DNA of 64,000 nt, taken from the IMG/VR virus record IMGVR_UViG_3300026522_000028, positions 1 to 64,000 of that record; one strand, 5' to 3'. The notes below the pieces were generated by a model. It had not been told where the DNA came from. It did no database searches and was given only the letters and a program-made list of their open reading frames with translations. The position numbers and the translations under genes are program-made. Positions 48,135 through 57,036 of this stretch are shown here, piece by piece; positions within the stretch are counted from its first letter, which is position 1; every line of letters starts with the position of its first letter. The DNA comes from a virus. Taxonomy: Duplodnaviria > Caudoviricetes.

Positions 48135-48474
48135 TTGACAACGAACCGATAAAGCGCTATACTGTGAAGCGTCCAAAGGGAACAGGGACAACGCAAGACA
48201 GCGACCCTGCGCCCGTCGCGAATCGTCGAAATTCGACAGGACGAAAAAAGTCCTTGACAACGAACCGATAAAGCGATATAATGGGGGCACCGAAAGGCAA
48301 AGAGGTCCATCCTACGAGACGACTCGGCTACGTGCATTGATTTGACACGCGAGTACGTCGTGGGGGGCGACGCTAAAACTCTATGCTTTTCATAGCTGCC
48401 ATTGTACGCTCGTAGTCTGTCCATTGTCGCCGACGAAAAAAGTCCTTGACAACGAACCGATAAAGCGATATAAT
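48135..48474 (+). promoter_or_regulatory. Three tandem near-identical strong early promoters
   Basis: TTGACA-acgaaccgataaagcg(a/c)-TATA(A/C)T at 48135, 48254 and 48446; A-tract UP element before the second and third. Confidence 0.9.
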
Positions 48475-48680
48475 GGGGACACAAGGTTGAAGGCCGCGAG
48501 GCCAATGACCTAACATTACACCGACGTTGGTAGCATCCCGAACAAGATTGCTACATGCCGTATTACTCTCTATGTAGAGGTCAGACTCTACCATCCAAAC
48601 ACGCGAGAAGCAACGCGTTATAACTCCCTGTCGCTATGTAACAGATGGCGCTCGTCATTGATGGCATAGGCAGACACGTA

Positions 48681-48697
48681 GTCCTTTGAAAACTGAA
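48681..48697 (+). promoter_or_regulatory. rrn-type boxA antitermination element
   Basis: GTCCTTTGAAAACTGAA resembles the Firmicutes rRNA-leader boxA (TCTTTGAAAACT). Confidence 0.6.
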
Positions 48698-49017
48698 GAA
48701 GTGTGTCCCAAAGCCTCCCCATAGCAGGCCCGCAAGAATCCTCTGTTTTGAACGGATACCACTATGGAAGACATGAAACAATGCAAGCGCCGTGGGAAGG
48801 TGCGTAGCAGACGAAGGTCTGTGAGGTATACCGCACGATGTAGATGCTTTGGGTAGTGAGCACAAAATTCCTCTCCTGTAAAAAATTCCGTGACGAGCGC
48901 GGGCAACACCGTGCTCATCATGGGAGGAACTAGGTAGCACCTAGGGACTTCCAATTTTTTTGCAAGTGTGATAACATATTTGTTATTGCAGTAACGGAAT
49001 TACTAGGAGGAATAACT

Positions 49018-49248
49018 ATGAACGCCAGTATTGAAAGACTGCACCGCATCGAACGCGAAGTAACATTGGCAGGTAAAGAAATCCTGTCGATTCGCTGCGA
49101 CGCCCTCGGGTATCGTGTGCTGGAGTACGACGAGAAGAACGTCTGCACCCCCTACGTGGTTCACGCGTGGCTCCCGGGGACTGGGCTCTTCGCAGGTCGA
49201 TACTTCGAACGCAAAGAAGGCGCGGTGGCCGAGTTCGACCGTCATTGA
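49018..49248 (+). CDS. Early hypothetical protein
   Basis: AGGAGG RBS. Confidence 0.7.
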   Translation: MNASIERLHRIEREVTLAGKEILSIRCDALGYRVLEYDEKNVCTPYVVHAWLPGTGLFAGRYFERKEGAVAEFDRH

Positions 49249-49308
49249 CAGTAACGGCGGCATGATGATTCCCATCGTGTCGCTGGTAGTGGCAATGACG
49301 CCACAGGA
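49249..49308 (+). repeat. Early two-hairpin element, copy 1
   Basis: 13-bp stem, GTA, GTGGC-aatgac-GCCAC, AGGA. Confidence 0.75.
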
Positions 49309-49327
49309 ACAACAGGAGGAATAAGCT

Positions 49328-49618
49328 ATGATGACATCTGTAATCGTCGATTATCGCGGAATGAACCATGAAACGGCTATCGAATACAAATGGGTGTTGC
49401 GCGATATCGAAGCGGAGCAAGTGGAAATCCCGCATCTAATCCGCGAGGACAAAGAGCAGGGCATGACCTACGACGAGACGCTGGAAGACCTGCGGACCGC
49501 TCTCGTGCTTGACATGAATGACTGTGTTGAGAGCGACTACATCCGCGAGCTTCTGGGATGCCTTGACATCGACTTCCATGCCATCGCCGAAAGACTGATG
49601 GAAAACTATTGGAATTGA
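49328..49618 (+). CDS. Early acidic hypothetical protein
   Basis: AGGAGG RBS. Confidence 0.7.
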   Translation: MMTSVIVDYRGMNHETAIEYKWVLRDIEAEQVEIPHLIREDKEQGMTYDETLEDLRTALVLDMNDCVESDYIRELLGCLDIDFHAIAERLMENYWN

Positions 49619-49674
49619 TAGTGGCAGCGGCAAGGCAACGTCTTGCCGTTGGTAGTGTCAATCCCGACACAGGA
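49619..49674 (+). repeat. Early two-hairpin element, copy 2
   Basis: CAGCGGCAAG/CTTGCCGTTG stem, GTA, GTGTC-aatccc-GACAC, AGGA. Confidence 0.75.
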
Positions 49675-49692
49675 TTAACAGGAGGAATTACC

Positions 49693-49911
49693 ATGACAGT
49701 ACAGGGAATCGTTGCAACGTCCGCATTCGGCGGGCTCGAAGTTCTTGACATCGAGTACGGCCCGGAGGATCGCGTCGTGTACCGCTGGTGCATCGACGGC
49801 AAAGAGGGGCGCATCTGCCGCGCAAAAATCCGTGATGATGTCGGTGGCCTTCCGTATTTCAAAACGCGGGGGCAGACGGTTTTCATGGATGACGTTCTCG
49901 CAGCACTCTGA
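49693..49911 (+). CDS. Early hypothetical protein
   Basis: AGGAGG RBS before ATG 49693. Confidence 0.7.
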   Translation: MTVQGIVATSAFGGLEVLDIEYGPEDRVVYRWCIDGKEGRICRAKIRDDVGGLPYFKTRGQTVFMDDVLAAL

Positions 49912-49977
49912 AAATCCGCAGTAATCTAGGCACGACAAGGAAGTCGTGTCTAGGGTAGTGGGGATTTTCCCACAGGA
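49912..49977 (+). repeat. Early two-hairpin element, copy 3
   Basis: TCCGCAGTAAT, CTAGGCACGAC/GTCGTGTCTAG stem, GTA, GTGGG-gatttt-CCCAC, AGGA. Confidence 0.8.
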
Positions 49978-49997
49978 AAAGACAGGAGGAATTTACT

Positions 49998-50039
49998 ATG
50001 AGGCATCTAGAACGTCCCCCGCCGCCGCCTACATATTAA
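49998..50039 (+). CDS. 13-aa poly-proline mini-ORF MRHLERPPPPPTY
   Basis: Same strong AGGAGG RBS as its neighbours; translation untested. Confidence 0.35.
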   Translation: MRHLERPPPPPTY

Positions 50040-50119
50040 TTTACGTATTATTGTAGGTGTACATGGAGGAAATGGAAATGCATTGGCGATAGTAGAGAAT
50101 ACGTAGTCGAATAGCCGAA

Positions 50120-50169
50120 ACGACCGTTGGATGCATACAACGGTTGTCTGTCGGGAATGACCCCCCGGC
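50120..50169 (+). repeat. Early two-hairpin element, divergent copy
   Basis: ACGACCGTTG/CAACGGTTGT stem followed by GTCGGG-aatgac..-CCCGGC; loop matches copy 1. Confidence 0.45.
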
Positions 50170-50214
50170 ACCGATGAGGCAGGTCAGCCTAGGGAAAAGA
50201 CAGGAGGAATTACC

Positions 50215-50526
50215 ATGAGACTGAAAACCGTTGAAAAGCTCATCAAGTACGCCGACATTCGCAAGGGTAGCGGCACGACACTCGGGAACCATTGGGTATC
50301 GGTCGGTTCCCTGAAGTTGAGCGTAACCTTCGGATACCATTCGACGGCAATCGCCCGGGTCTTGTTCAATCACAAGACCATCGAGTTCGACAATGGAGGC
50401 TGGGACACTTCGAGCACCAACACGGCTCTTCGCGACTACTTCGGCGAATACGTCGTAAAGCGCGGCTACAAAGACGTGACGGACTACACGAAGCATGCAG
50501 ACATTCGTCGTCGGCTCTATCGGTGA
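50215..50526 (+). CDS. Early hypothetical protein
   Basis: AGGAGG RBS. Confidence 0.7.
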   Translation: MRLKTVEKLIKYADIRKGSGTTLGNHWVSVGSLKLSVTFGYHSTAIARVLFNHKTIEFDNGGWDTSSTNTALRDYFGEYVVKRGYKDVTDYTKHADIRRRLYR

Positions 50527-50563
50527 GGGACATTTTCCCACAGGAACAACAGGAGGAATAACC

Positions 50564-50974
50564 ATGAAAAACGCAACGGTCACATTCAAGAACGGCAAGA
50601 CGCTGGGTATCTACGACGGCAAATTCTTCGGCGTCGAGGTATCGACGGAGCCGTGCATGAAAGGGCAGCTGGACTACTACGCCATGATTCACGGATTCTG
50701 CGACGCAATGATTTTGAACAATGAAATCATTCGCCATGCCGATGACTGGGAGGTGGTAAACGGCAGCGACTACGATGAGGAAACGGGGGAGTATTTCGAG
50801 GTATTCCAGTATTTCATCATCGACGGCAATGGCGCGGAGTATCTGGAGGAATACACGGATCAACTCGTGTACTATAGCGAATCGCTGGACATGTATCTGC
50901 TCGGGGTGACGCACTGCGGAACCGCGTGGGACTGCGTAAACTCTGGGTACGAGGTAACGGCAGAAGCCGAATGA
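50564..50974 (+). CDS. Early acidic protein with an EVFQYFII...YLLGVTHCGTAWD motif
   Basis: AGGAGG RBS; motif type recalled from phage early regions. Confidence 0.7.
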   Translation: MKNATVTFKNGKTLGIYDGKFFGVEVSTEPCMKGQLDYYAMIHGFCDAMILNNEIIRHADDWEVVNGSDYDEETGEYFEVFQYFIIDGNGAEYLEEYTDQLVYYSESLDMYLLGVTHCGTAWDCVNSGYEVTAEAE

Positions 50975-50999
50975 CACTAGGGACACAGGAGGAATTACA

Positions 51000-51317
51000 A
51001 TGAGATTCTATGGACATTGCATGGAGGAAAACGGCTTCGATGTAATCCGTGATTTCCGCATGGGCAAATGGGAGATTGCCGTGTCGGAGCCGTACAAGAA
51101 TTACAAGGGTGAACCGAAAATCACGGTGCTTGTCGGTGACGATTTCGGCGGTGACTACGTGCATTGGTGGCTCTTCAAGGATTCCGATGGTATCCAGAAA
51201 CAGCACATCAACTACACGCAGGCGTCCGACGCATACATGCCGCCGCCGTACATCTGCAGGAAAATCGCAGAAGTCTTCCAGCGCACCGCTGAGGAGTATG
51301 GGATTTTGGAGGGATAA
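51000..51317 (+). CDS. Early hypothetical protein
   Basis: AGGAGG RBS. Confidence 0.7.
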   Translation: MRFYGHCMEENGFDVIRDFRMGKWEIAVSEPYKNYKGEPKITVLVGDDFGGDYVHWWLFKDSDGIQKQHINYTQASDAYMPPPYICRKIAEVFQRTAEEYGILEG

Positions 51318-51319
51318 CA

Positions 51320-51577
51320 ATGGAGGCACGCATTTATGGACTGCTGGAAAATCGTATCTACGATTCGGCCATGAGTTACTTTGGCAAACTGATGGAGGCA
51401 CGAGAACACCACACGGAGGTGAATGTGTATTGCTCTGGGAGAGCACAAGGAAAAGTGTTTGCACTCATTGATTTTGCGGTAGCCGCTGGGATGACCGAGG
51501 ATTACGCCGCATTGCTTTACAGAAAAGCACGGAAATCATTCGCGGTTCAGCACAATATGAGCGAGGAGGATTTGTAA
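51320..51577 (+). CDS. Early hypothetical protein
   Basis: GGAGG RBS, operon packing. Confidence 0.65.
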   Translation: MEARIYGLLENRIYDSAMSYFGKLMEAREHHTEVNVYCSGRAQGKVFALIDFAVAAGMTEDYAALLYRKARKSFAVQHNMSEEDL

Positions 51578-51768
51578 TGGAAAATCTGAAAACAATCGCC
51601 GCATTCATCGTAGCCACCGCAGCGCGTCCATTCGTGTCGCGACGGTTCCCCGTGTACGACGAGGGAGGCGTGATGGTATCGACGTATTCGATAACGCCCC
51701 GATTCGTCTGGGTGAATCGGGGGATTGCGCTGGTGATGCTCGGCGTATTCGTCGGGATGCACATCTGA
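51577..51768 (+). CDS. Small membrane-anchored early protein
   Basis: GAGGAGG RBS; C-terminal hydrophobic segment. Confidence 0.6.
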   Translation: MENLKTIAAFIVATAARPFVSRRFPVYDEGGVMVSTYSITPRFVWVNRGIALVMLGVFVGMHI

Positions 51769-51832
51769 AAATCCGCAGTAATCTGGGCGCGTCAAGGGAC
51801 GTGCCTAGGCTAGTGGGGATTTTCCCACAGAA
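51769..51832 (+). repeat. Early two-hairpin element, copy 4
   Basis: TCCGCAGTAA, TCTGGGCGCGTC/GACGTGCCTAGG stem, CTA, GTGGG-gatttt-CCCAC, AGAA. Confidence 0.8.
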
Positions 51833-51848
51833 ATAGGGAGGTATATCC

Positions 51849-52025
51849 ATGAAATACAAAATGAATGTCAAAGAAATCCTGTCTCGCACCGTGGAAATCG
51901 AGGCCGATTCGTTGGAGGACGCGAATCGAAAGGTCCACCAGCTCTATGATGCAGAGGAAATCGTGCTGGACTCTTCGGACTGGCAGGAGACAATCATCGA
52001 TGAGGCAGAAGAAGCGGAGGAATAA
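51849..52025 (+). CDS. DpnD/PcfM-like small protein
   Basis: Own translation MKYKMNVKEILSRTVEIEADSLEDANRKVHQLYDAEEIVLDSSDW...; GGAGGT RBS. Confidence 0.65.
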   Translation: MKYKMNVKEILSRTVEIEADSLEDANRKVHQLYDAEEIVLDSSDWQETIIDEAEEAEE

Positions 52026-52028
52026 ACC

Positions 52029-52289
52029 ATGAAGCGCTATGATAACTGGTATGGTATCAAGGAGTTCGATTTCATCTACTACAACGAATGGGAGGACCCG
52101 ACGCTTGTATTCGATGGGACGTCAATTAACGTCCATGACATCGAAGACTATTTCTGGGAGGAATACCTAGAGGACGGCGGTGAAGACCAGAATTTCGATG
52201 CATTCGGCGAATACCTGCGGGATAATGCCGATGAAGTTCTGGAGGAAGCGCGGAGAATTGCCGCAATCACAAGGGAAGAGGAGGCATAA
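52029..52289 (+). CDS. Highly acidic early protein (DNA-mimic candidate)
   Basis: 26 D+E versus 7 K+R in 86 aa. Confidence 0.7.
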   Translation: MKRYDNWYGIKEFDFIYYNEWEDPTLVFDGTSINVHDIEDYFWEEYLEDGGEDQNFDAFGEYLRDNADEVLEEARRIAAITREEEA

Positions 52290-52291
52290 CG

Positions 52292-52486
52292 ATGGAGATC
52301 ATCGGAACTAGGGAAACGTCAGAGGGATTCTACACACTTGTGCGAGGCGCGTATGGAATCGTCGTGTTGTTCAAGCGCACATCCAATCTGCTTCACCGAT
52401 ATGTTTTGAAATACGGTCAGAATCCATGCAAGGTGAAGACCATTGATGATGCATTGAAATGTGCATGGGATGAAACGGGGTGCTGA
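52292..52486 (+). CDS. Early hypothetical protein
   Basis: GGAGG RBS. Confidence 0.6.
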   Translation: MEIIGTRETSEGFYTLVRGAYGIVVLFKRTSNLLHRYVLKYGQNPCKVKTIDDALKCAWDETGC

Positions 52487-52488
52487 CA

Positions 52489-52767
52489 ATGGAACCATTG
52501 AGAACTACTGTGGTGTTCCGCAAGTTTAGGGACGGCGATGTCATCGCATTGTTCCCAGAGGACGGGGAGTTTTCCAGCGGTCGCATCATGACCTACATGC
52601 ACGACGGGCAGCACTGTTCTGCGCCGTATCCAGAAATCGTGCAAGGGACAATCCCAGCGATGCCGGAGGAATACGCCGACCTGTTGGAGGAACTGAAATA
52701 CGTTGGTTACATTCCGGTTGTGCGGAAGAAATGCCATGTAAAGTGGAGCTGCCAGTATCGGTATTGA
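52489..52767 (+). CDS. Early hypothetical protein (VVFRKF...IALFP...HDGQH family)
   Basis: Operon packing; motif type recalled from mobile elements. Confidence 0.7.
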   Translation: MEPLRTTVVFRKFRDGDVIALFPEDGEFSSGRIMTYMHDGQHCSAPYPEIVQGTIPAMPEEYADLLEELKYVGYIPVVRKKCHVKWSCQYRY

Positions 52768-52783
52768 ATGGAGGACTGAAATC

Positions 52784-53131
52784 ATGAAGAACGAACAGAA
52801 TTACAAGGGATTCGCGGCCATCCGTGACAAGGCGGTGGAGATTGGAATGCCGAAGTATTGGGCAACAGACCTAGGGATCGACGCGATGTCCCTGTGGGAA
52901 CACAAGGACACACCGTTCATCTGGATTCCTCGTGAGTGCGGCACGGCTCTCGTGCTGCTCGACGAAACGAACAAGACAATACAGGATTGCGGGCTGGGTA
53001 TCGTAGACTACTATCGGACGCAGGAGGAGACAGCACGGTTCTTCTATTGGGACGGCGATAGGCTAACCGAGAAAACTGGAGATGAAGCCTACGATATAAC
53101 CGCAACCGCATTCTCTGCAATCGCAGGATAA
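52784..53131 (+). CDS. Early hypothetical protein
   Basis: GGAGG RBS; FIWIPRECGT motif. Confidence 0.7.
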   Translation: MKNEQNYKGFAAIRDKAVEIGMPKYWATDLGIDAMSLWEHKDTPFIWIPRECGTALVLLDETNKTIQDCGLGIVDYYRTQEETARFFYWDGDRLTEKTGDEAYDITATAFSAIAG

Positions 53132-53148
53132 CATTTTGCAAAAACTAC

Positions 53149-53177
53149 TTGACAATGACACGATAATCGTCTATAAT
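53149..53177 (+). promoter_or_regulatory. Internal consensus sigmaA promoter
   Basis: TTGACA-17-TATAAT. Confidence 0.85.
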
Positions 53178-53253
53178 GAAACCATCGAGAGGCGATAGGG
53201 ACAACAAAGATATACGCAGACGATAACATCTATGTGAACGGAGGAACGGAACA

Positions 53254-53601
53254 ATGAAATCCTATGACGAAATCGTTGAAGAAATCTACAACATGAACGA
53301 TGAGGAAATCGTGAACATCTGGAATGAGTATTGCGACTACGCAAACAACGATGACCGCATCTATCCGATGGACGAGTTTGAGTCCATCGCAGAGCCGCCG
53401 TCGAAATGCTGGGACGAGTTCTGGGAAATGTTCGATGACCTGAAGGACTTCGACCGTAATGCCGCGTGGTTCTACAAAGATGACCGCTGGGATTGCTGGA
53501 CTTCCCTTGACAATCCTTGGGATGTAGTCAGTCCAGAGGATATGGCTAGGGCCATCGCCGATGGAGACTTCGATCCGAGCTGGGATTTTGAGGAGGAATG
53601 A
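53254..53601 (+). CDS. Highly acidic early protein (DNA-mimic candidate)
   Basis: About 31% D+E over 115 aa; first gene after the promoter. Confidence 0.7.
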   Translation: MKSYDEIVEEIYNMNDEEIVNIWNEYCDYANNDDRIYPMDEFESIAEPPSKCWDEFWEMFDDLKDFDRNAAWFYKDDRWDCWTSLDNPWDVVSPEDMARAIADGDFDPSWDFEEE

Positions 53602-53605
53602 ACCA

Positions 53606-53914
53606 ATGGAAGTCACAGAACTTTCCCGTGACCAGCTCACGGAGCTCAAAGGGAATTACCTTGACGAACGAATGGACGGCAGCGCAAGCTGGGGAGAAAT
53701 TGCCGACGCCGACGAAATCATCAGCGACGCCGAAATCTTTGAGGCATACGCGGGATACGAGTTCGGCAACGATGACTTCTTCTGCACCGCTGGAATTTCA
53801 GAGGACTTATTCGACGCCGACGAGCGGACTGTCCTAAGAAGCGTCCGCCAATGCGCCGACAGGATTACTTTGGAAGACATCGAGCGCAACGCAAGCATAG
53901 TTTGCGCCGTGTGA
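53606..53914 (+). CDS. Acidic early protein
   Basis: GAGGAGG RBS before ATG 53606. Confidence 0.65.
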   Translation: MEVTELSRDQLTELKGNYLDERMDGSASWGEIADADEIISDAEIFEAYAGYEFGNDDFFCTAGISEDLFDADERTVLRSVRQCADRITLEDIERNASIVCAV

Positions 53915-53930
53915 TTGGAGGAATTGAACG

Positions 53931-54572
53931 ATGAAAGAGCAGAAAATCAGAGTGTATGTTCCGTCGATTCAGATGGTGAAGACCTACAGATACGACGAGC
54001 TGCCGGAGGAATCCAAGGGAAGCATTCGGGATGAATGGAGAGATGGCGATGATTACGATTGGTCGGAGGAGATTGCTTCGATGAAAGCTATCGCGAAAGC
54101 ATTGAACTGTGACCTGCGATACGAGCAGGACCCGTGGGGTTGGACTGTGAGACTGTCTCCGAACTTCGAGTACATAGACGAGGAGAAAATCAGCGGTGTG
54201 CGTGCTCTGGCGTACATCGAAAACAAATTCATCACGCCGAACGAGAAAGGGAAGTTCTATGGATACTTCTACAACTACGGAAAGCGCGAATACAGGGGAA
54301 TCACGAAGAGTTTGGATTGTCCGTTCACAGGGTTCTGGCTGGACGATGACCTGCGGGTTGCCTATGAAATCTGGAAGGATCACCTGCGTGGAAATCCGCA
54401 GATAACCGTCGAAGATTTCCTGATGTTTGTCGAGGACACGCTGAAGAAAGACTTGGATTCCATCGTCGAAGACCATCAGACCGACGAGTATGTTGACGAA
54501 GAAATCGAAGCGAACTGGGATGACCGCTGGTATACCATCGACGGTAGGGATGTGACCGATGATATTGCATGA
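53931..54572 (+). CDS. Early protein (Y.YDEL...EEIEANWDD.WYT.DG type)
   Basis: GGAGG RBS; terminal motifs typical of a widespread phage early family. Confidence 0.7.
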   Translation: MKEQKIRVYVPSIQMVKTYRYDELPEESKGSIRDEWRDGDDYDWSEEIASMKAIAKALNCDLRYEQDPWGWTVRLSPNFEYIDEEKISGVRALAYIENKFITPNEKGKFYGYFYNYGKREYRGITKSLDCPFTGFWLDDDLRVAYEIWKDHLRGNPQITVEDFLMFVEDTLKKDLDSIVEDHQTDEYVDEEIEANWDDRWYTIDGRDVTDDIA

Positions 54573-54635
54573 GTGTCCGCAGTAATCTGGGCGCATCCGA
54601 TGATGTGCCTAGGCTAGTGGGGATTCTCCCATAGA
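54573..54635 (+). repeat. Early two-hairpin element, copy 5
   Basis: TCCGCAGTAA, TCTGGGCGCATC/GATGTGCCTAGG stem, CTA, GTGGG-gattct-CCCAT. Confidence 0.8.
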
Positions 54636-54681
54636 GGTATAGAGGTATAACGCTATAGAGGTATGGAGGTATAGAGGTATG
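54631..54681 (+). repeat. Dispersed copy of the parS-like array; supplies the RBS and ATG of the next gene
   Basis: ATAGAGGTATAGAGGTATAACGCTATAGAGGTATGGAGGTATAGAGGT-ATG. Confidence 0.8.
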
Positions 54682-54939
54682 AAAATGTATCTGATTCTCG
54701 TAGATGATTCGTCGAATTGCACGACAATGCAGGCCGCGTTTTCCACTAGGGAAAAGGCGCAGGAGTTCTTCGCGAAAGAGATGGAAGACTACTGGCCGAA
54801 AGCAGAGTGGAACAACGGCAGCTATGACATCGACGGAAAGACCGCCGAGGAATGCATTGAGAAGCTGGAGTTCTATGACGCTGGGGACAATCATCTGTAC
54901 GGCATGGAACTCGAAGTTGACTCTGGTAAATGGATGTAA
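54679..54939 (+). CDS. Early acidic hypothetical protein
   Basis: ORF track; RBS inside the repeat. Confidence 0.7.
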   Translation: MKMYLILVDDSSNCTTMQAAFSTREKAQEFFAKEMEDYWPKAEWNNGSYDIDGKTAEECIEKLEFYDAGDNHLYGMELEVDSGKWM

Positions 54940-56031: not shown

Positions 56032-56241
56032 ATGCTGATTGATATTACGTCGAAGCCATGGAATTGGCCGACCGATTATCCTACGATGGACGCCATCATT
56101 GATGGACATAGGGATCGGCTGGTTCAGCGGCATCCAGACGGCAGCCTGTGGATGGATCACATGTATTACGATGGAGAGCGCGGGACGGTTCTGGAGTACG
56201 TGCCTGTTCCCGATGACGCAACCGCGAAGGAGGTCGAATGA
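56032..56241 (+). CDS. Early hypothetical protein
   Basis: GGAGG RBS. Confidence 0.6.
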   Translation: MLIDITSKPWNWPTDYPTMDAIIDGHRDRLVQRHPDGSLWMDHMYYDGERGTVLEYVPVPDDATAKEVE

Positions 56242-57036
56242 CAATGGACTACAGCGAATTTCTGGCAGAGGTGAAGGTTCTGCGCTCCAAGGCAACCTAC
56301 GAGGGATACAAGGCAGCGCTGAAGCACTTCCCGAATCCGACGAAGGAAAACATCATGAAGTACATCGAGAATCCGAAGTTCTCATCGAGCACAAAAAAAA
56401 GAACGCCTCCGTATTCTCGGAACTGCCCTCAGATGGTACAATAAGATGGACAGAGGAATCGAGCGAATCATCAAGGGATACCGTGAGAACAAGACGGTCG
56501 AGCCCTGCCCTACCAATGAGCAGGTGGAGCTGGCATGGAACCAGCTCGGGAACAACAGAGACAGAGCGATGTTCGCGCTGATGGCCTACAATGGTTTGCG
56601 TATCGGCGAAGTTCATGCATTGGATAGAGCCGACGTAGACATTGAGCATAACATTTTGACCGTTCGCGGAACCAAAGGTAAGCACGATGCAATCATCCCG
56701 CTCATCCATCCGAGAGTCCAGAAATACCTGTATGCATGGATGACCGAGCGCCACGATAACTACAAGGCATTGTTCATCGGGCCGAACGGTCGGCTGTCCT
56801 ATGGATTTCTCAAGGTGAAATTCCATGAGTTGTTCCGCGATCTCGGCATGGAGTTCCATGCACATTCCCTCCGGCGCTACTATGCCAATTCCATGTACAA
56901 CGCAGGAGTTCCGTTGCAGGACATGTCAGTTGCCATGCGTCACGCCAATGTTTCCACGACGATGCGCTACCTGAACATTGGGCAGCAGAACGTTGTGGCT
57001 GCGCTCCAGCGCACATTCGCTGGAGCTACGGCGTAA
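56238..57036 (+). pseudogene. XerC-like tyrosine recombinase interrupted by a frameshift at an A8 tract
   Basis: Removing one A at 56393-56400 joins ORFs 56238-56444 and 56446-57036 (STKK-ERLRILGTALRWYNKMDRG); GLRIGE, HSLRR, MRH and TMRY catalytic motifs intact. Confidence 0.85.

Follow-up and report, generated by a model that had tools for sequence, protein, structure and literature searches.

A Covarying Long-Hairpin RNA Repeat and a Type II Hammerhead Ribozyme in the Early Operon of a Rumen Phage

Two kinds of RNA element hold interchangeable slots in one early operon of a rumen phage: a type II hammerhead ribozyme and a long, covarying hairpin that is non-catalytic. These elements, together with ribosome binding sites (RBSs), sit in the gaps between early genes in the window analysed here, a stretch of 64,000 nucleotides (IMG/VR virus record IMGVR_UViG_3300026522_000028). 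The original prediction that a cis-acting RNA module, working on the sense strand, recurs through a polycistronic early array is upheld by covariation, by the early promoters and by the lack of an Rfam match, although its count of six copies and its two-hairpin architecture have had to be revised. We infer, as an evenly balanced judgement, that the five long hairpins are processing and stability modules of the RNase III-site type within a long early mRNA. Additionally, the breakpoints at which related phages differ in gene content fall at these elements.

The early array and its five long hairpins

Judging from sequence, a polycistronic early transcript should be driven by tandem promoters at 48135..48474, which score 11/12, 12/12 and 12/12 matches and have 17-nt spacers. 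No terminator-like site is present on the + strand within the early array. The features of the array are as follows.

48135-48163, 48254-48282 and 48446-48474, + strand: three tandem sigma-70/sigma-A-type promoters (family D1)
49240..49304, + strand: copy c1 (long hairpin 49240-49300; stem 2 49289-49304; stop codon 49246-49248 within the 5' arm)
49609..49670, + strand: copy c2 (long hairpin 49609-49667; stem 2 49655-49670; stop codon 49616-49618 within the 5' arm)
49910..49973, + strand: copy c3 (long hairpin 49910-49969; stem 2 49958-49973; stop codon 49909-49911 at the base)
49998..50039, + strand: mini-ORF of 13 codons, MRHLERPPPPPTY, preceded by a strong RBS of its own and lying between c3 and the hammerhead
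50113..50188, + strand: type II hammerhead ribozyme (Rfam Hammerhead_II, RF02276), ahead of an RBS
50527..50545, + strand: remnant, stem 2 and tail only (family D2)
50972..50990, + strand: remnant, 3' half of stem 2 and tail (GACAC UAGGGA)
51767..51828, + strand: copy c5 (long hairpin 51767-51824; stem 2 51813-51828; stop codon 51766-51768 at the base)
53149..53177, + strand: sigma-70-type promoter internal to the array (12/12 match)
54571..54632, + strand: copy c6 (long hairpin 54571-54628; stem 2 54617-54632; stop codon 54570-54572 at the base)

The five copies lie, as predicted, directly 3' of stop codons and about 10 nt ahead of the next Shine-Dalgarno sequence; in all variants the stop codon is 0-4 nt ahead of the 5' arm or within it. 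None of the five matched any Rfam family at E<=10, and for these copies the description of the repeat as new stands. No member of the long-hairpin family was found outside this phage lineage. The mini-ORF is kept by relatives, with PPPSP, and whether it is part of the module is uncertain.

When the 5' flank is included, each of the five copies folds not as two hairpins but predominantly as a single interrupted hairpin of about 24 bp, or roughly two helical turns. It consists of a lower stem of 7-8 bp, a CAGUA/UAGUG core and an upper stem of 10-13 bp, and in all variants the helix has 22-25 bp over 25-27 rungs. The core contains three 1x1 mismatches, a G.G flanked by A.G or A.C; in c2 it reads UAGUG on both arms, with wobble-compatible changes. 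The predicted (CA)GTAA-like flank and GTA linker are present, but they pair together rather than serving as single-stranded junctions, and the sequence 5' of the CAGUA flank, stop codon included, is paired to stem 2, both to its 5' half and to its loop. In 12/12 variants from related rumen contigs the long hairpin has the lowest energy of any fold, and it is more stable than the two-hairpin state by 3.3-11.1 kcal/mol (for c1, -34.3 versus -29.8 kcal/mol).

Base pairing within the long hairpin is maintained by covariation. The 21 pairs of alignment A3 are 96.5% paired in register, versus 34-49% when the arms are slid, and 11 of the 21 have changed on both sides. The observed paired fraction, number of double-changed cells and covariation score were each reached by 0/500 shuffles, and the number of double-changed pairs by 20/500. 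The alignment holds about 28 G-U cells versus 8 unpaired ones, and variant m1 carries compensating insertions in both arms. The helices on either side covary around a nearly invariant core. Sense-strand folds have energies of -33.5 to -37.2 kcal/mol (z -5.1 to -8.1) and are far more stable than antisense folds (-19.5 to -25.7 kcal/mol), which bears out the earlier argument that the G-U pairs are useful only in the sense RNA.

The 3' arm of the long hairpin, together with the following 5 nt, can instead form stem 2, about 10 nt before the Shine-Dalgarno sequence. This alternative helix also covaries (at 2 of its 5 pairs) and is mutually exclusive with the lower stem, column 57 having column 11 as its partner in the long hairpin and column 64 in stem 2. 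Stem 2 has one mismatch in variant m3 and is closed by a G-U pair in c6. The 10-13 bp stem 1 and the GUGNN/NNCAC stem 2 of the original prediction, with pairing preserved by covariation, are therefore both upheld.

Two other identities of the repeat were rejected. An integron attC site is defined by an R''/R' core, RYYYAAC ... GTTRRRY, and an integron-type integrase; 0/47 GTTRRRY matches fall in an element, the recombinase close by reaches 31 bits, the TIGR02249 cut-off being 265, and the pairing bias lies on the RNA sense strand. An RNA anti-CRISPR, a solitary mimic of a CRISPR repeat, was sought in 201 genomes of the Selenomonadaceae, the family of the inferred host, and the stem 2 region had no multi-copy match among them; its single matches occur in stretches with conserved flanks, which we read as protein-coding gene. 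Model R2 had no match among 151 genomes.

A relative of the phage was found in a Selenomonas ruminantium MAG, and the host, assigned by inference, is probably a Negativicute. RNase III and RNase J are encoded in genomes of the likely host family, with scores above curated cut-offs. The original prediction described the flanking transcripts as anti-defence mRNAs, a description that is unproven: at E<=0.01, 18 of the 20 early proteins searched had no Pfam match, and the remaining two matched DpnD/PcfM and DUF7336, the latter below cut-off. About 2.5 kb downstream there is an AcrIC5-like gene.

A hammerhead ribozyme in the sixth slot

The element taken to be a divergent copy at 50120, and hence the sixth of its kind, is a hammerhead. 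Positions 50113-50188 score 40.0 bits against the RF02276 gathering score of 37, and variants in relatives, which conserve the hammerhead in the equivalent slot, reach 42.3 bits. We tested for the core C3 U4 G5 A6 N7 G8 A9 / G12 A13 A14 / A15.1-U16.1 H17; every position agrees but for U4, which reads C (CCGAUGA), a C kept in every relative. The U4C change is reported to lower activity in vitro, yet to be functional in vivo in a viroid (PMC3088659). Cleavage is predicted after C50148 (GUC). Loop I (UGACC) forms a pseudoknot with the 3' tail (GGUCA), and stem III covaries, a U-A pair being replaced by C-G in the related contig L146.

A hammerhead comprises block C (CUGANGA), block G (GAAA), block S (UH) and three stems (PMC10085705). 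The five long-hairpin copies are not hammerheads of any permutation; blocks C and G are absent and no Rfam hammerhead was matched at E<=10. Self-cleavage by these copies is unlikely because their conserved bases are almost all paired and the hammerhead core blocks are lacking.

Remnants and breakpoints

The array also contains the two partial elements listed above, neither of which was in the original list. At 50527-50545, the upstream gene stands where contigs L140 and L146 retain the full long hairpin; at the junction corresponding to 50972-50990, contig L138 has a complete element (1827-1897). Homology blocks shared with L138, L140 and L146 have their starts as well as their ends inside an element or its RBS, so that the gene-content breakpoints of relatives do coincide with these sequences, as the idea of a crossover point had proposed. 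L138 carries a 93-nt island with 97% identity to c3, flanked by genes that have no counterpart in the window. Since the otherwise unrelated cassettes share nothing else, the elements and RBSs probably double as joints for homologous recombination. Two more distant relatives, G002 and G003 (terminase 75-81% identical), have just 8-9 bp GC-rich hairpins in their early gaps.

Processing of the early mRNA and competing explanations

According to the processing model, host RNA polymerase would make a long early mRNA whose long hairpins would be bound by host RNase III, or another double-strand-specific endonuclease, and cut in or near the mismatched core, as in the early sites of T7. The upper hairpin (10-13 bp) would stay with the upstream mRNA and shut out exonucleases at its 3' end. 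The liberated 3' arm would refold into stem 2, a 5'-terminal hairpin of the downstream mRNA that would guard its 5'-monophosphate end from RNase J. The hammerhead would yield products of the same shape without a protein: an upstream RNA ending in the stem III hairpin and a downstream RNA beginning with the stem I hairpin. The cleavage itself, its enzyme and its site are all terms of this model.

RNase III acts on helices of about two turns (about 20 bp or more, with coaxial stacking allowed), a length reached in all variants (22-25 bp), and internal loops restrict the enzyme to one strand, leaving a protective 3' hairpin (PMC1540722). Hairpins at 5' ends protect against RNase J1, for which 5'-P fragments are substrates (PMC3997798). 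Counting against processing is the mismatched core at the putative RNase III site, given that pairing around the scissile bonds exceeds 90% at the in vivo sites of Bacillus subtilis and Escherichia coli (PMC11780869) and that a bulge-helix-bulge motif allows RNase III binding but can block cleavage (PMC1540722). Symmetric cuts with 2-nt overhangs are also at odds with the pseudo-symmetric core, whose centre is a base pair.

It is rather unlikely that the elements are instead passive intercistronic stabilisers, left uncut like REP or BIME-type hairpins, which would stall 3'-to-5' exonucleases while stem 2 and the RBS stall 5'-to-3' decay begun elsewhere. The hairpins are indeed very stable and immediately follow stop codons, Firmicute mRNAs gain stability from hairpins and RBSs at or close to their 5' ends (PMC3997798), and the simple hairpins in the like gaps of G002 and G003 fit stabilisers better than processing sites. 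A passive barrier, however, has no need of a conserved core with mismatches, of a lower stem covarying with the stop codon and the codons just before it, or of a mutually exclusive alternative helix, and the presence of a self-cleaving ribozyme in an equivalent slot speaks for cutting as the desired event.

We consider it unlikely that ribosomes read the element as a bistable RNA switch, or that, in a less likely version, it is a new protein-independent cleaving RNA in the hammerhead niche. As a switch, a ribosome terminating on the 5'-arm stop codon would open the lower stem and convert the nuclease-sensitive long hairpin to the two-hairpin form; if so, processing and survival of the downstream cistron would be coupled to upstream translation.

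The near-invariant core between covarying helices could also suggest an operator for a dimeric RNA-binding protein of phage or host, for example a translational or stability regulator, that recognises CAGUA/UAGUG with its G.G while the protein or a terminating ribosome sets the stem 2 switch. The UAGUG on both strands of c2 is in keeping with this, as is the stop codon at or in the 5' arm of all variants, which means that a terminating ribosome must open the lower stem. We regard such an operator as decidedly unlikely: the search for a candidate binding protein found none, Pfam at E<=0.01 having given only DpnD/PcfM and DUF7336 among the 20 early proteins; the core motifs of m1 do not face each other; and the sampled lineage is narrow, so that core invariance may reflect shared ancestry.

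The breakpoints within elements or RBSs and the c3-like island of L138, with the precedent of the PeSL cassettes of T4-type phages (PMC2839356), might be taken to mean that the element is mainly a DNA-level linker, a patch of homology for cassette shuffling whose RNA fold is a by-product. This is very unlikely, for recombination homology needs no base pairing, and the compensatory changes, the excess of G-U over unpaired cells and the sense/antisense gap of 10-15 kcal/mol point to selection on RNA.

That the hairpin is a new class of self-cleaving ribozyme is highly improbable, even though it matches no known family, shares its type of slot with a hammerhead, and clustering of bacterial ribozymes has exposed new classes (PMC6765202), as with twister-sister, pistol and hatchet. 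The favoured fold pairs nearly all conserved bases and leaves three single mismatches; in the two-hairpin state the linker is 3 nt long and no tertiary contact covaries; stem 2 could not form alongside a full loop-to-flank pseudoknot because both use column 57; and the absence of CUGANGA and GAAA means that it is not a permuted hammerhead. Finally, antitermination by a put-like or nut-like RNA acting on RNA polymerase, for which nothing speaks beyond two adjacent stems in one conformer and a long transcript, is scarcely credible: HK022 put consists of two stem-loops right after the promoter that act on later terminators, whereas the five copies span 5.4 kb, lie about 0.8-6 kb from the promoters with none promoter-proximal, have no + strand terminator-like site in the array to read through and adopt the two-stem conformer as a minor form.

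Little is yet known of what hammerheads and other small ribozymes do for phages and bacteria (PMC6765202). Returning to the processing model, the hammerhead and the long hairpin form a natural pair of modules, both of which appear built to put a hairpin on each new RNA end. We propose that phage hammerheads are nuclease-independent counterparts of RNase III sites, an idea that is testable. The long-hairpin element is, besides, a clear instance of a regulatory repeat that doubles as a joint for shuffling early cassettes, which are probably anti-defence genes, though this is unproven.

Several known systems share parts of this arrangement. The PeSL cassettes of T4-type phages (PMC2839356, PMC4122927) likewise place regulatory repeats among variable small early genes, with breakpoints there; PeSL, however, comprises an early promoter and a terminator-like stem-loop, whereas the elements described here have no promoter or U-tract but a long hairpin and an RBS. 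Processing of polycistronic RNA has been suggested as the role of hammerheads that flank prophage genes (PMC3088659). Those clustered in prophages (Perreault et al. 2011, PMC3088659) resemble ours in being type II, in the pseudoknot between loop I and the tail, and in lying between small phage genes, but the hammerhead here is single, stands amid five non-ribozyme hairpins and has a U4C core. In the Firmicute phage SP82, repeated related hairpins in early transcripts are cut by host RNase III, a likeness drawn from published descriptions.

Among the analogues originally named, the early RNase III sites of T7 fit best. T7 also has three tandem host-type promoters (A1-A3) and a long polycistronic early mRNA; its sites (R0.3, R0.5, R1, R1.1 and R1.3) are sequence-related hairpins in intergenic gaps, with an upper stem of about 10 bp, a lower stem and unpaired bases between them, and the UGA codons of genes 0.4 and 0.7 lie in the base of the 5' arm, as do the upstream stops here. 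Cleavage is proven for the T7 sites and putative for ours, which have no sequence similarity to them and occur in a phage of a different host, probably a Negativicute. The elements here have longer and more stable helices (-33 to -37 versus -18 to -26 kcal/mol), with three 1x1 mismatches in the middle in place of one asymmetric loop. Unlike the T7 sites, they possess a covarying alternative hairpin of the 3' arm, and this 5' hairpin suggests a possible adaptation of T7-style processing to hosts with the 5' exonuclease RNase J.

The early gene array and its repeat

The phage record is complete at 76,180 bp (IMG/VR), of which the window covers bases 1-64000. Its minus strand bears the structural and replication genes (terminase, portal, tail proteins and DNA polymerase), and a plus-strand block of small genes begins near 49018. 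The host is probably a rumen member of the Selenomonadaceae, because a Selenomonas ruminantium rumen MAG holds a relative with 71% terminase identity and because near-identical contigs originate from rumen metagenomes. The main features are as follows.

42632-44368, minus strand: terminase gene
48135, 48254 and 48446: three tandem promoter-like sites upstream of the array, near-perfect matches to TTGACA-17-TATAAT
53149: fourth promoter-like site, a near-perfect match to TTGACA-17-TATAAT
49240-49304, 49609-49670, 49910-49973, 51767-51828 and 54571-54632, plus strand: repeat copies c1, c2, c3, c5 and c6
50113-50188, plus strand: hammerhead, composed of GAAAC, a stem III hairpin, GUC, a stem I hairpin and CCGAUGA

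Since promoters lie upstream and no plus-strand terminator-like site was found in the early array, the small early genes should be transcribed as long polycistronic RNAs. A leader of about 540 nt (48480-49017), without a plus-strand ORF, separates the triple promoter from the first early gene. It contains a hairpin with a T-run after it near 48940-48965 and, at 48988, a solitary GCAGTAAC motif that makes a 5-bp hairpin immediately 5' of the first RBS. An IS605-type insertion with a Y1 transposase and a TnpB/Cas12f-like gene lies upstream of the early promoter region of a 72-kb relative (L150, 438-1963).

The predicted repeat is present in five gaps between early genes. A covariance model built from these copies recovered exactly those five from the whole genome, at 68-80 bits, and scored below 20 bits on the reverse strand; none of 4227 Rfam families fits them at E<=10. 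The sole Rfam match at E<=10 across 48800-54800 was the hammerhead. It occupies the place of what the original prediction called a divergent copy at 50120, which is instead a type II hammerhead (Rfam, 40 bits; gathering score 37).

A strict IUPAC pattern had no match in viral_contigs and retrieved one true relative, JGI contig L138, and one chance match, L137, from metagenome_contigs; the 114 matches to a loose pattern in viral_contigs were discarded as single, chance ones. Two covariance models of the repeat (R1 and R2) detected nothing in phages with terminases 71-88% identical (L118-L125, L134-L136, L149) or in 151 Selenomonadaceae genomes, and the region matched no GenBank phage by megablast. 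Among the sequences searched, the repeat family was thus found only in this phage lineage and, because it also has no Rfam match, it is a new RNA family. Two more distant relatives with terminases 80-81% identical, G002 (L135, 5902-6680) and G003 (L136, 7002-7054), are without this repeat. Their early gaps carry a different repeat, short GC-rich hairpins (GGGNCCGG...CCGGNCCC, 8-9 bp, no U-tract), in the same place as the window repeat, between stop codon and RBS.

A long hairpin and its alternative

The repeat had been described as two hairpins, stem 1 and stem 2, with a 5' flank and a linker. The stems and their pairing hold, whereas the flank and linker pair as a conserved core. With 12-24 nt of 5' flank included, the minimum-energy fold is one long hairpin in every copy and every relative variant, with these parts.

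Lower stem, 7-8 bp: 5' side from the flank, starting at the stop codon or just after it; 3' side from the 5' half and loop of stem 2
Above the lower stem, in order: a single mismatch; CA paired with UG; a G.G mismatch; UA paired with UA; another mismatch
Top: stem 1, 10-13 bp

In this anatomy the "CAGTAA flank" and "GTA linker" are therefore opposite strands of the core, CAGUA facing UAGUG. Folding energies are -33.5 to -37.2 kcal/mol for the sense strand (z -5.1 to -8.1) and -19.5 to -25.7 for the antisense. The two-hairpin state is favoured only if the 5' arm is blocked. In every variant the 5' arm contains the upstream stop codon or starts 0-4 nt after it, and about 10 nt separate the end of stem 2 from the Shine-Dalgarno sequence. 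RBS occlusion was rejected, as neither conformer showed conserved pairing with that sequence. The remaining junctions of the array are tight (-8 to +25 nt).

Twelve distinct variants were assembled from L138 (strict pattern) and the further contigs L139-L151 (exact-protein look-up), and covariation was counted in an alignment of 11 sequences, A3. The long hairpin has 21 pairs in A3, 96.5% paired, with changes on both sides in 11 pairs, although these counts overstate the number of independent covariation events because the sequences are close relatives. None of 500 shuffles of A3 matched the paired fraction, the double-changed cells or the covariation score, and 20 of 500 matched the count of double-changed pairs. 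When partners were slid by 1-3 columns, pairing fell to 34-49%. In variant m1 (L138:385-457), extra bases are present on both arms and again pair; this compensating insertion and the contrast between in-register and slid partners are free of the kinship problem.

Double changes occur in 5 of the 7 lower-stem pairs (for example GUCAUU/AAUGAC, AAAAUC/GAUUUU and GGAAUU/AAUCCC), and the core of c2 has changes that wobble pairing tolerates (C to U opposite G; A to G opposite U). Stem 2 covaries at 2 of its 5 pairs (GC/UA and GC/CG). Column 57 partners either column 11 or column 64, depending on the fold, and the lower stem and stem 2 are therefore mutually exclusive alternatives. A full pseudoknot, in which the stem 2 loop would pair with the 5' flank while stem 2 is formed, was rejected, since both helices claim the loop ends and column 57.

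In L143 (1731-1791, against window 49618-49678) the 9-nt tip of the c2 hairpin is exactly inverted, GGCAACGUC becoming GACGUUGCC. The change replaces a G-U pair by an A.C mismatch and indicates that the tip was inverted in the DNA. Directly 3' of c6, and overlapping the start region of the next gene, are tandem 8-nt units like GGTATAGA (54630-54681); a related array stands in inverted orientation at 46004-46037. Target-site duplication or a MITE was dismissed: the 5' arm and the 3' half of stem 2 match at only 3-4 of 5 positions, hence no duplication.

The hammerhead, proposed RNA processing and rival readings

The hammerhead is predicted to cut after 50148, in GUC. Its loop I (UGACC) is complementary to GGUCA of the 3' tail, a pseudoknot typical of type II hammerheads (PMC3088659). 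Its core has C for U4, as in all relatives, among which stem III shows a compensatory change; the U4C substitution is reported to lower activity in vitro, yet to leave enough in vivo in a viroid (PMC3088659). The stem I loop (AAUGACC, 50150-50172) shares sequence with the stem 2 loop of c1 (AAUGAC, 49289-49304), and both hairpins are preceded by GU(C/A), a possible relic of recombination between these two module types. Between c3 and the hammerhead is a 13-codon mini-ORF (MRHLERPPPPPTY, 49998-50039) with a strong RBS, retained in relatives with an altered proline run (PPPSP in L150). It may encode a polyproline leader peptide that couples ribosome stalling to folding of the ribozyme, or may be a gene remnant.

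RNase III substrates are about two helical turns long, and internal loops can limit cutting to one strand, so that the upstream product keeps a protective 3' hairpin (PMC1540722). In Firmicutes, RNase J degrades fragments with a 5'-monophosphate, against which a 5'-terminal hairpin gives protection (PMC3997798). Genes for RNase III and RNase J, above curated cut-offs, are present in genomes of the likely host family. We propose that the long hairpin is a processing site, cut near the mismatched core, after which the upper hairpin would cap the upstream 3' end and the freed 3' arm would refold into stem 2, capping the downstream 5' end. Because the hammerhead alone would give the same product geometry (stem III hairpin, cut, stem I hairpin), it could occupy such a slot. 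We hold this processing model with as much doubt as confidence, because cutting is deduced rather than seen, base pairing around the scissile bonds is usually good at RNase III sites in vivo (PMC11780869), and the enzyme binds some bulge-helix-bulge motifs but leaves them uncut (PMC1540722). No nuclease or RNA-binding domain was found by Pfam among 20 early proteins.

The strongest rival, a passive stabiliser, is unlikely. Somewhat less likely again is a switch read by ribosomes or, slightly behind it, an operator for a dimeric protein. 

That the repeat is a linker for recombination only is quite improbable. The suggestion that it also serves as a crossover point is supported, because edges of homology blocks fall in the repeat or its RBS (blastn of L138, L140, L146 and L147 against the window). 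L138 carries a 93-nt island, 97% identical to c3, between two genes absent from the window; the block from window 50971 opens in L138 within a full element, in the 3' half of its stem 2; and that from 50532 opens in stem 2, where the window has only a remnant and L140 and L146 have the whole element. This breakpoint pattern has a parallel in T4-type phages, in their PeSL cassettes (PMC2839356). A Xer-like tyrosine recombinase, a single 263-aa gene in L141 (7373-8164), is read in the window (56238-57036) as two ORFs, at 56238-56444 and 56446-57036. Over 8.4 kb the window is one base longer than L141, and a frameshift or a sequencing error may account for the split. Integron attC-like sites were rejected (no GTTRRRY core; the recombinase is Xer-like), as was a CRISPR-repeat mimic (multi-copy match absent from 201 genomes searched).

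A new ribozyme is very improbable. The five copies are without the core blocks of a permuted hammerhead, and a hairpin ribozyme was rejected for want of a loop B domain and of any Rfam match; c1 alone reads UGACAGU, resembling the sTRSV substrate. Put-like antitermination is weakest of all, the two-hairpin state being less stable by 3.3-11.1 kcal/mol in 12 of 12 variants.

Comparison with the T7 early region

The kind of element is well known, namely phage intercistronic processing or stability hairpins. New here are the covarying alternative 5' hairpin and the use of a hammerhead alongside, in an equivalent slot. Of the systems that have been worked out, the T7 early region comes closest; we obtained its sequence and folded its gene gaps for comparison. 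There, three tandem host promoters are followed by sequence-related hairpins in which an internal loop separates a lower stem from an upper one of about 10 bp, and genes 0.4 and 0.7 have their UGA in the base of the hairpin 5' arm.
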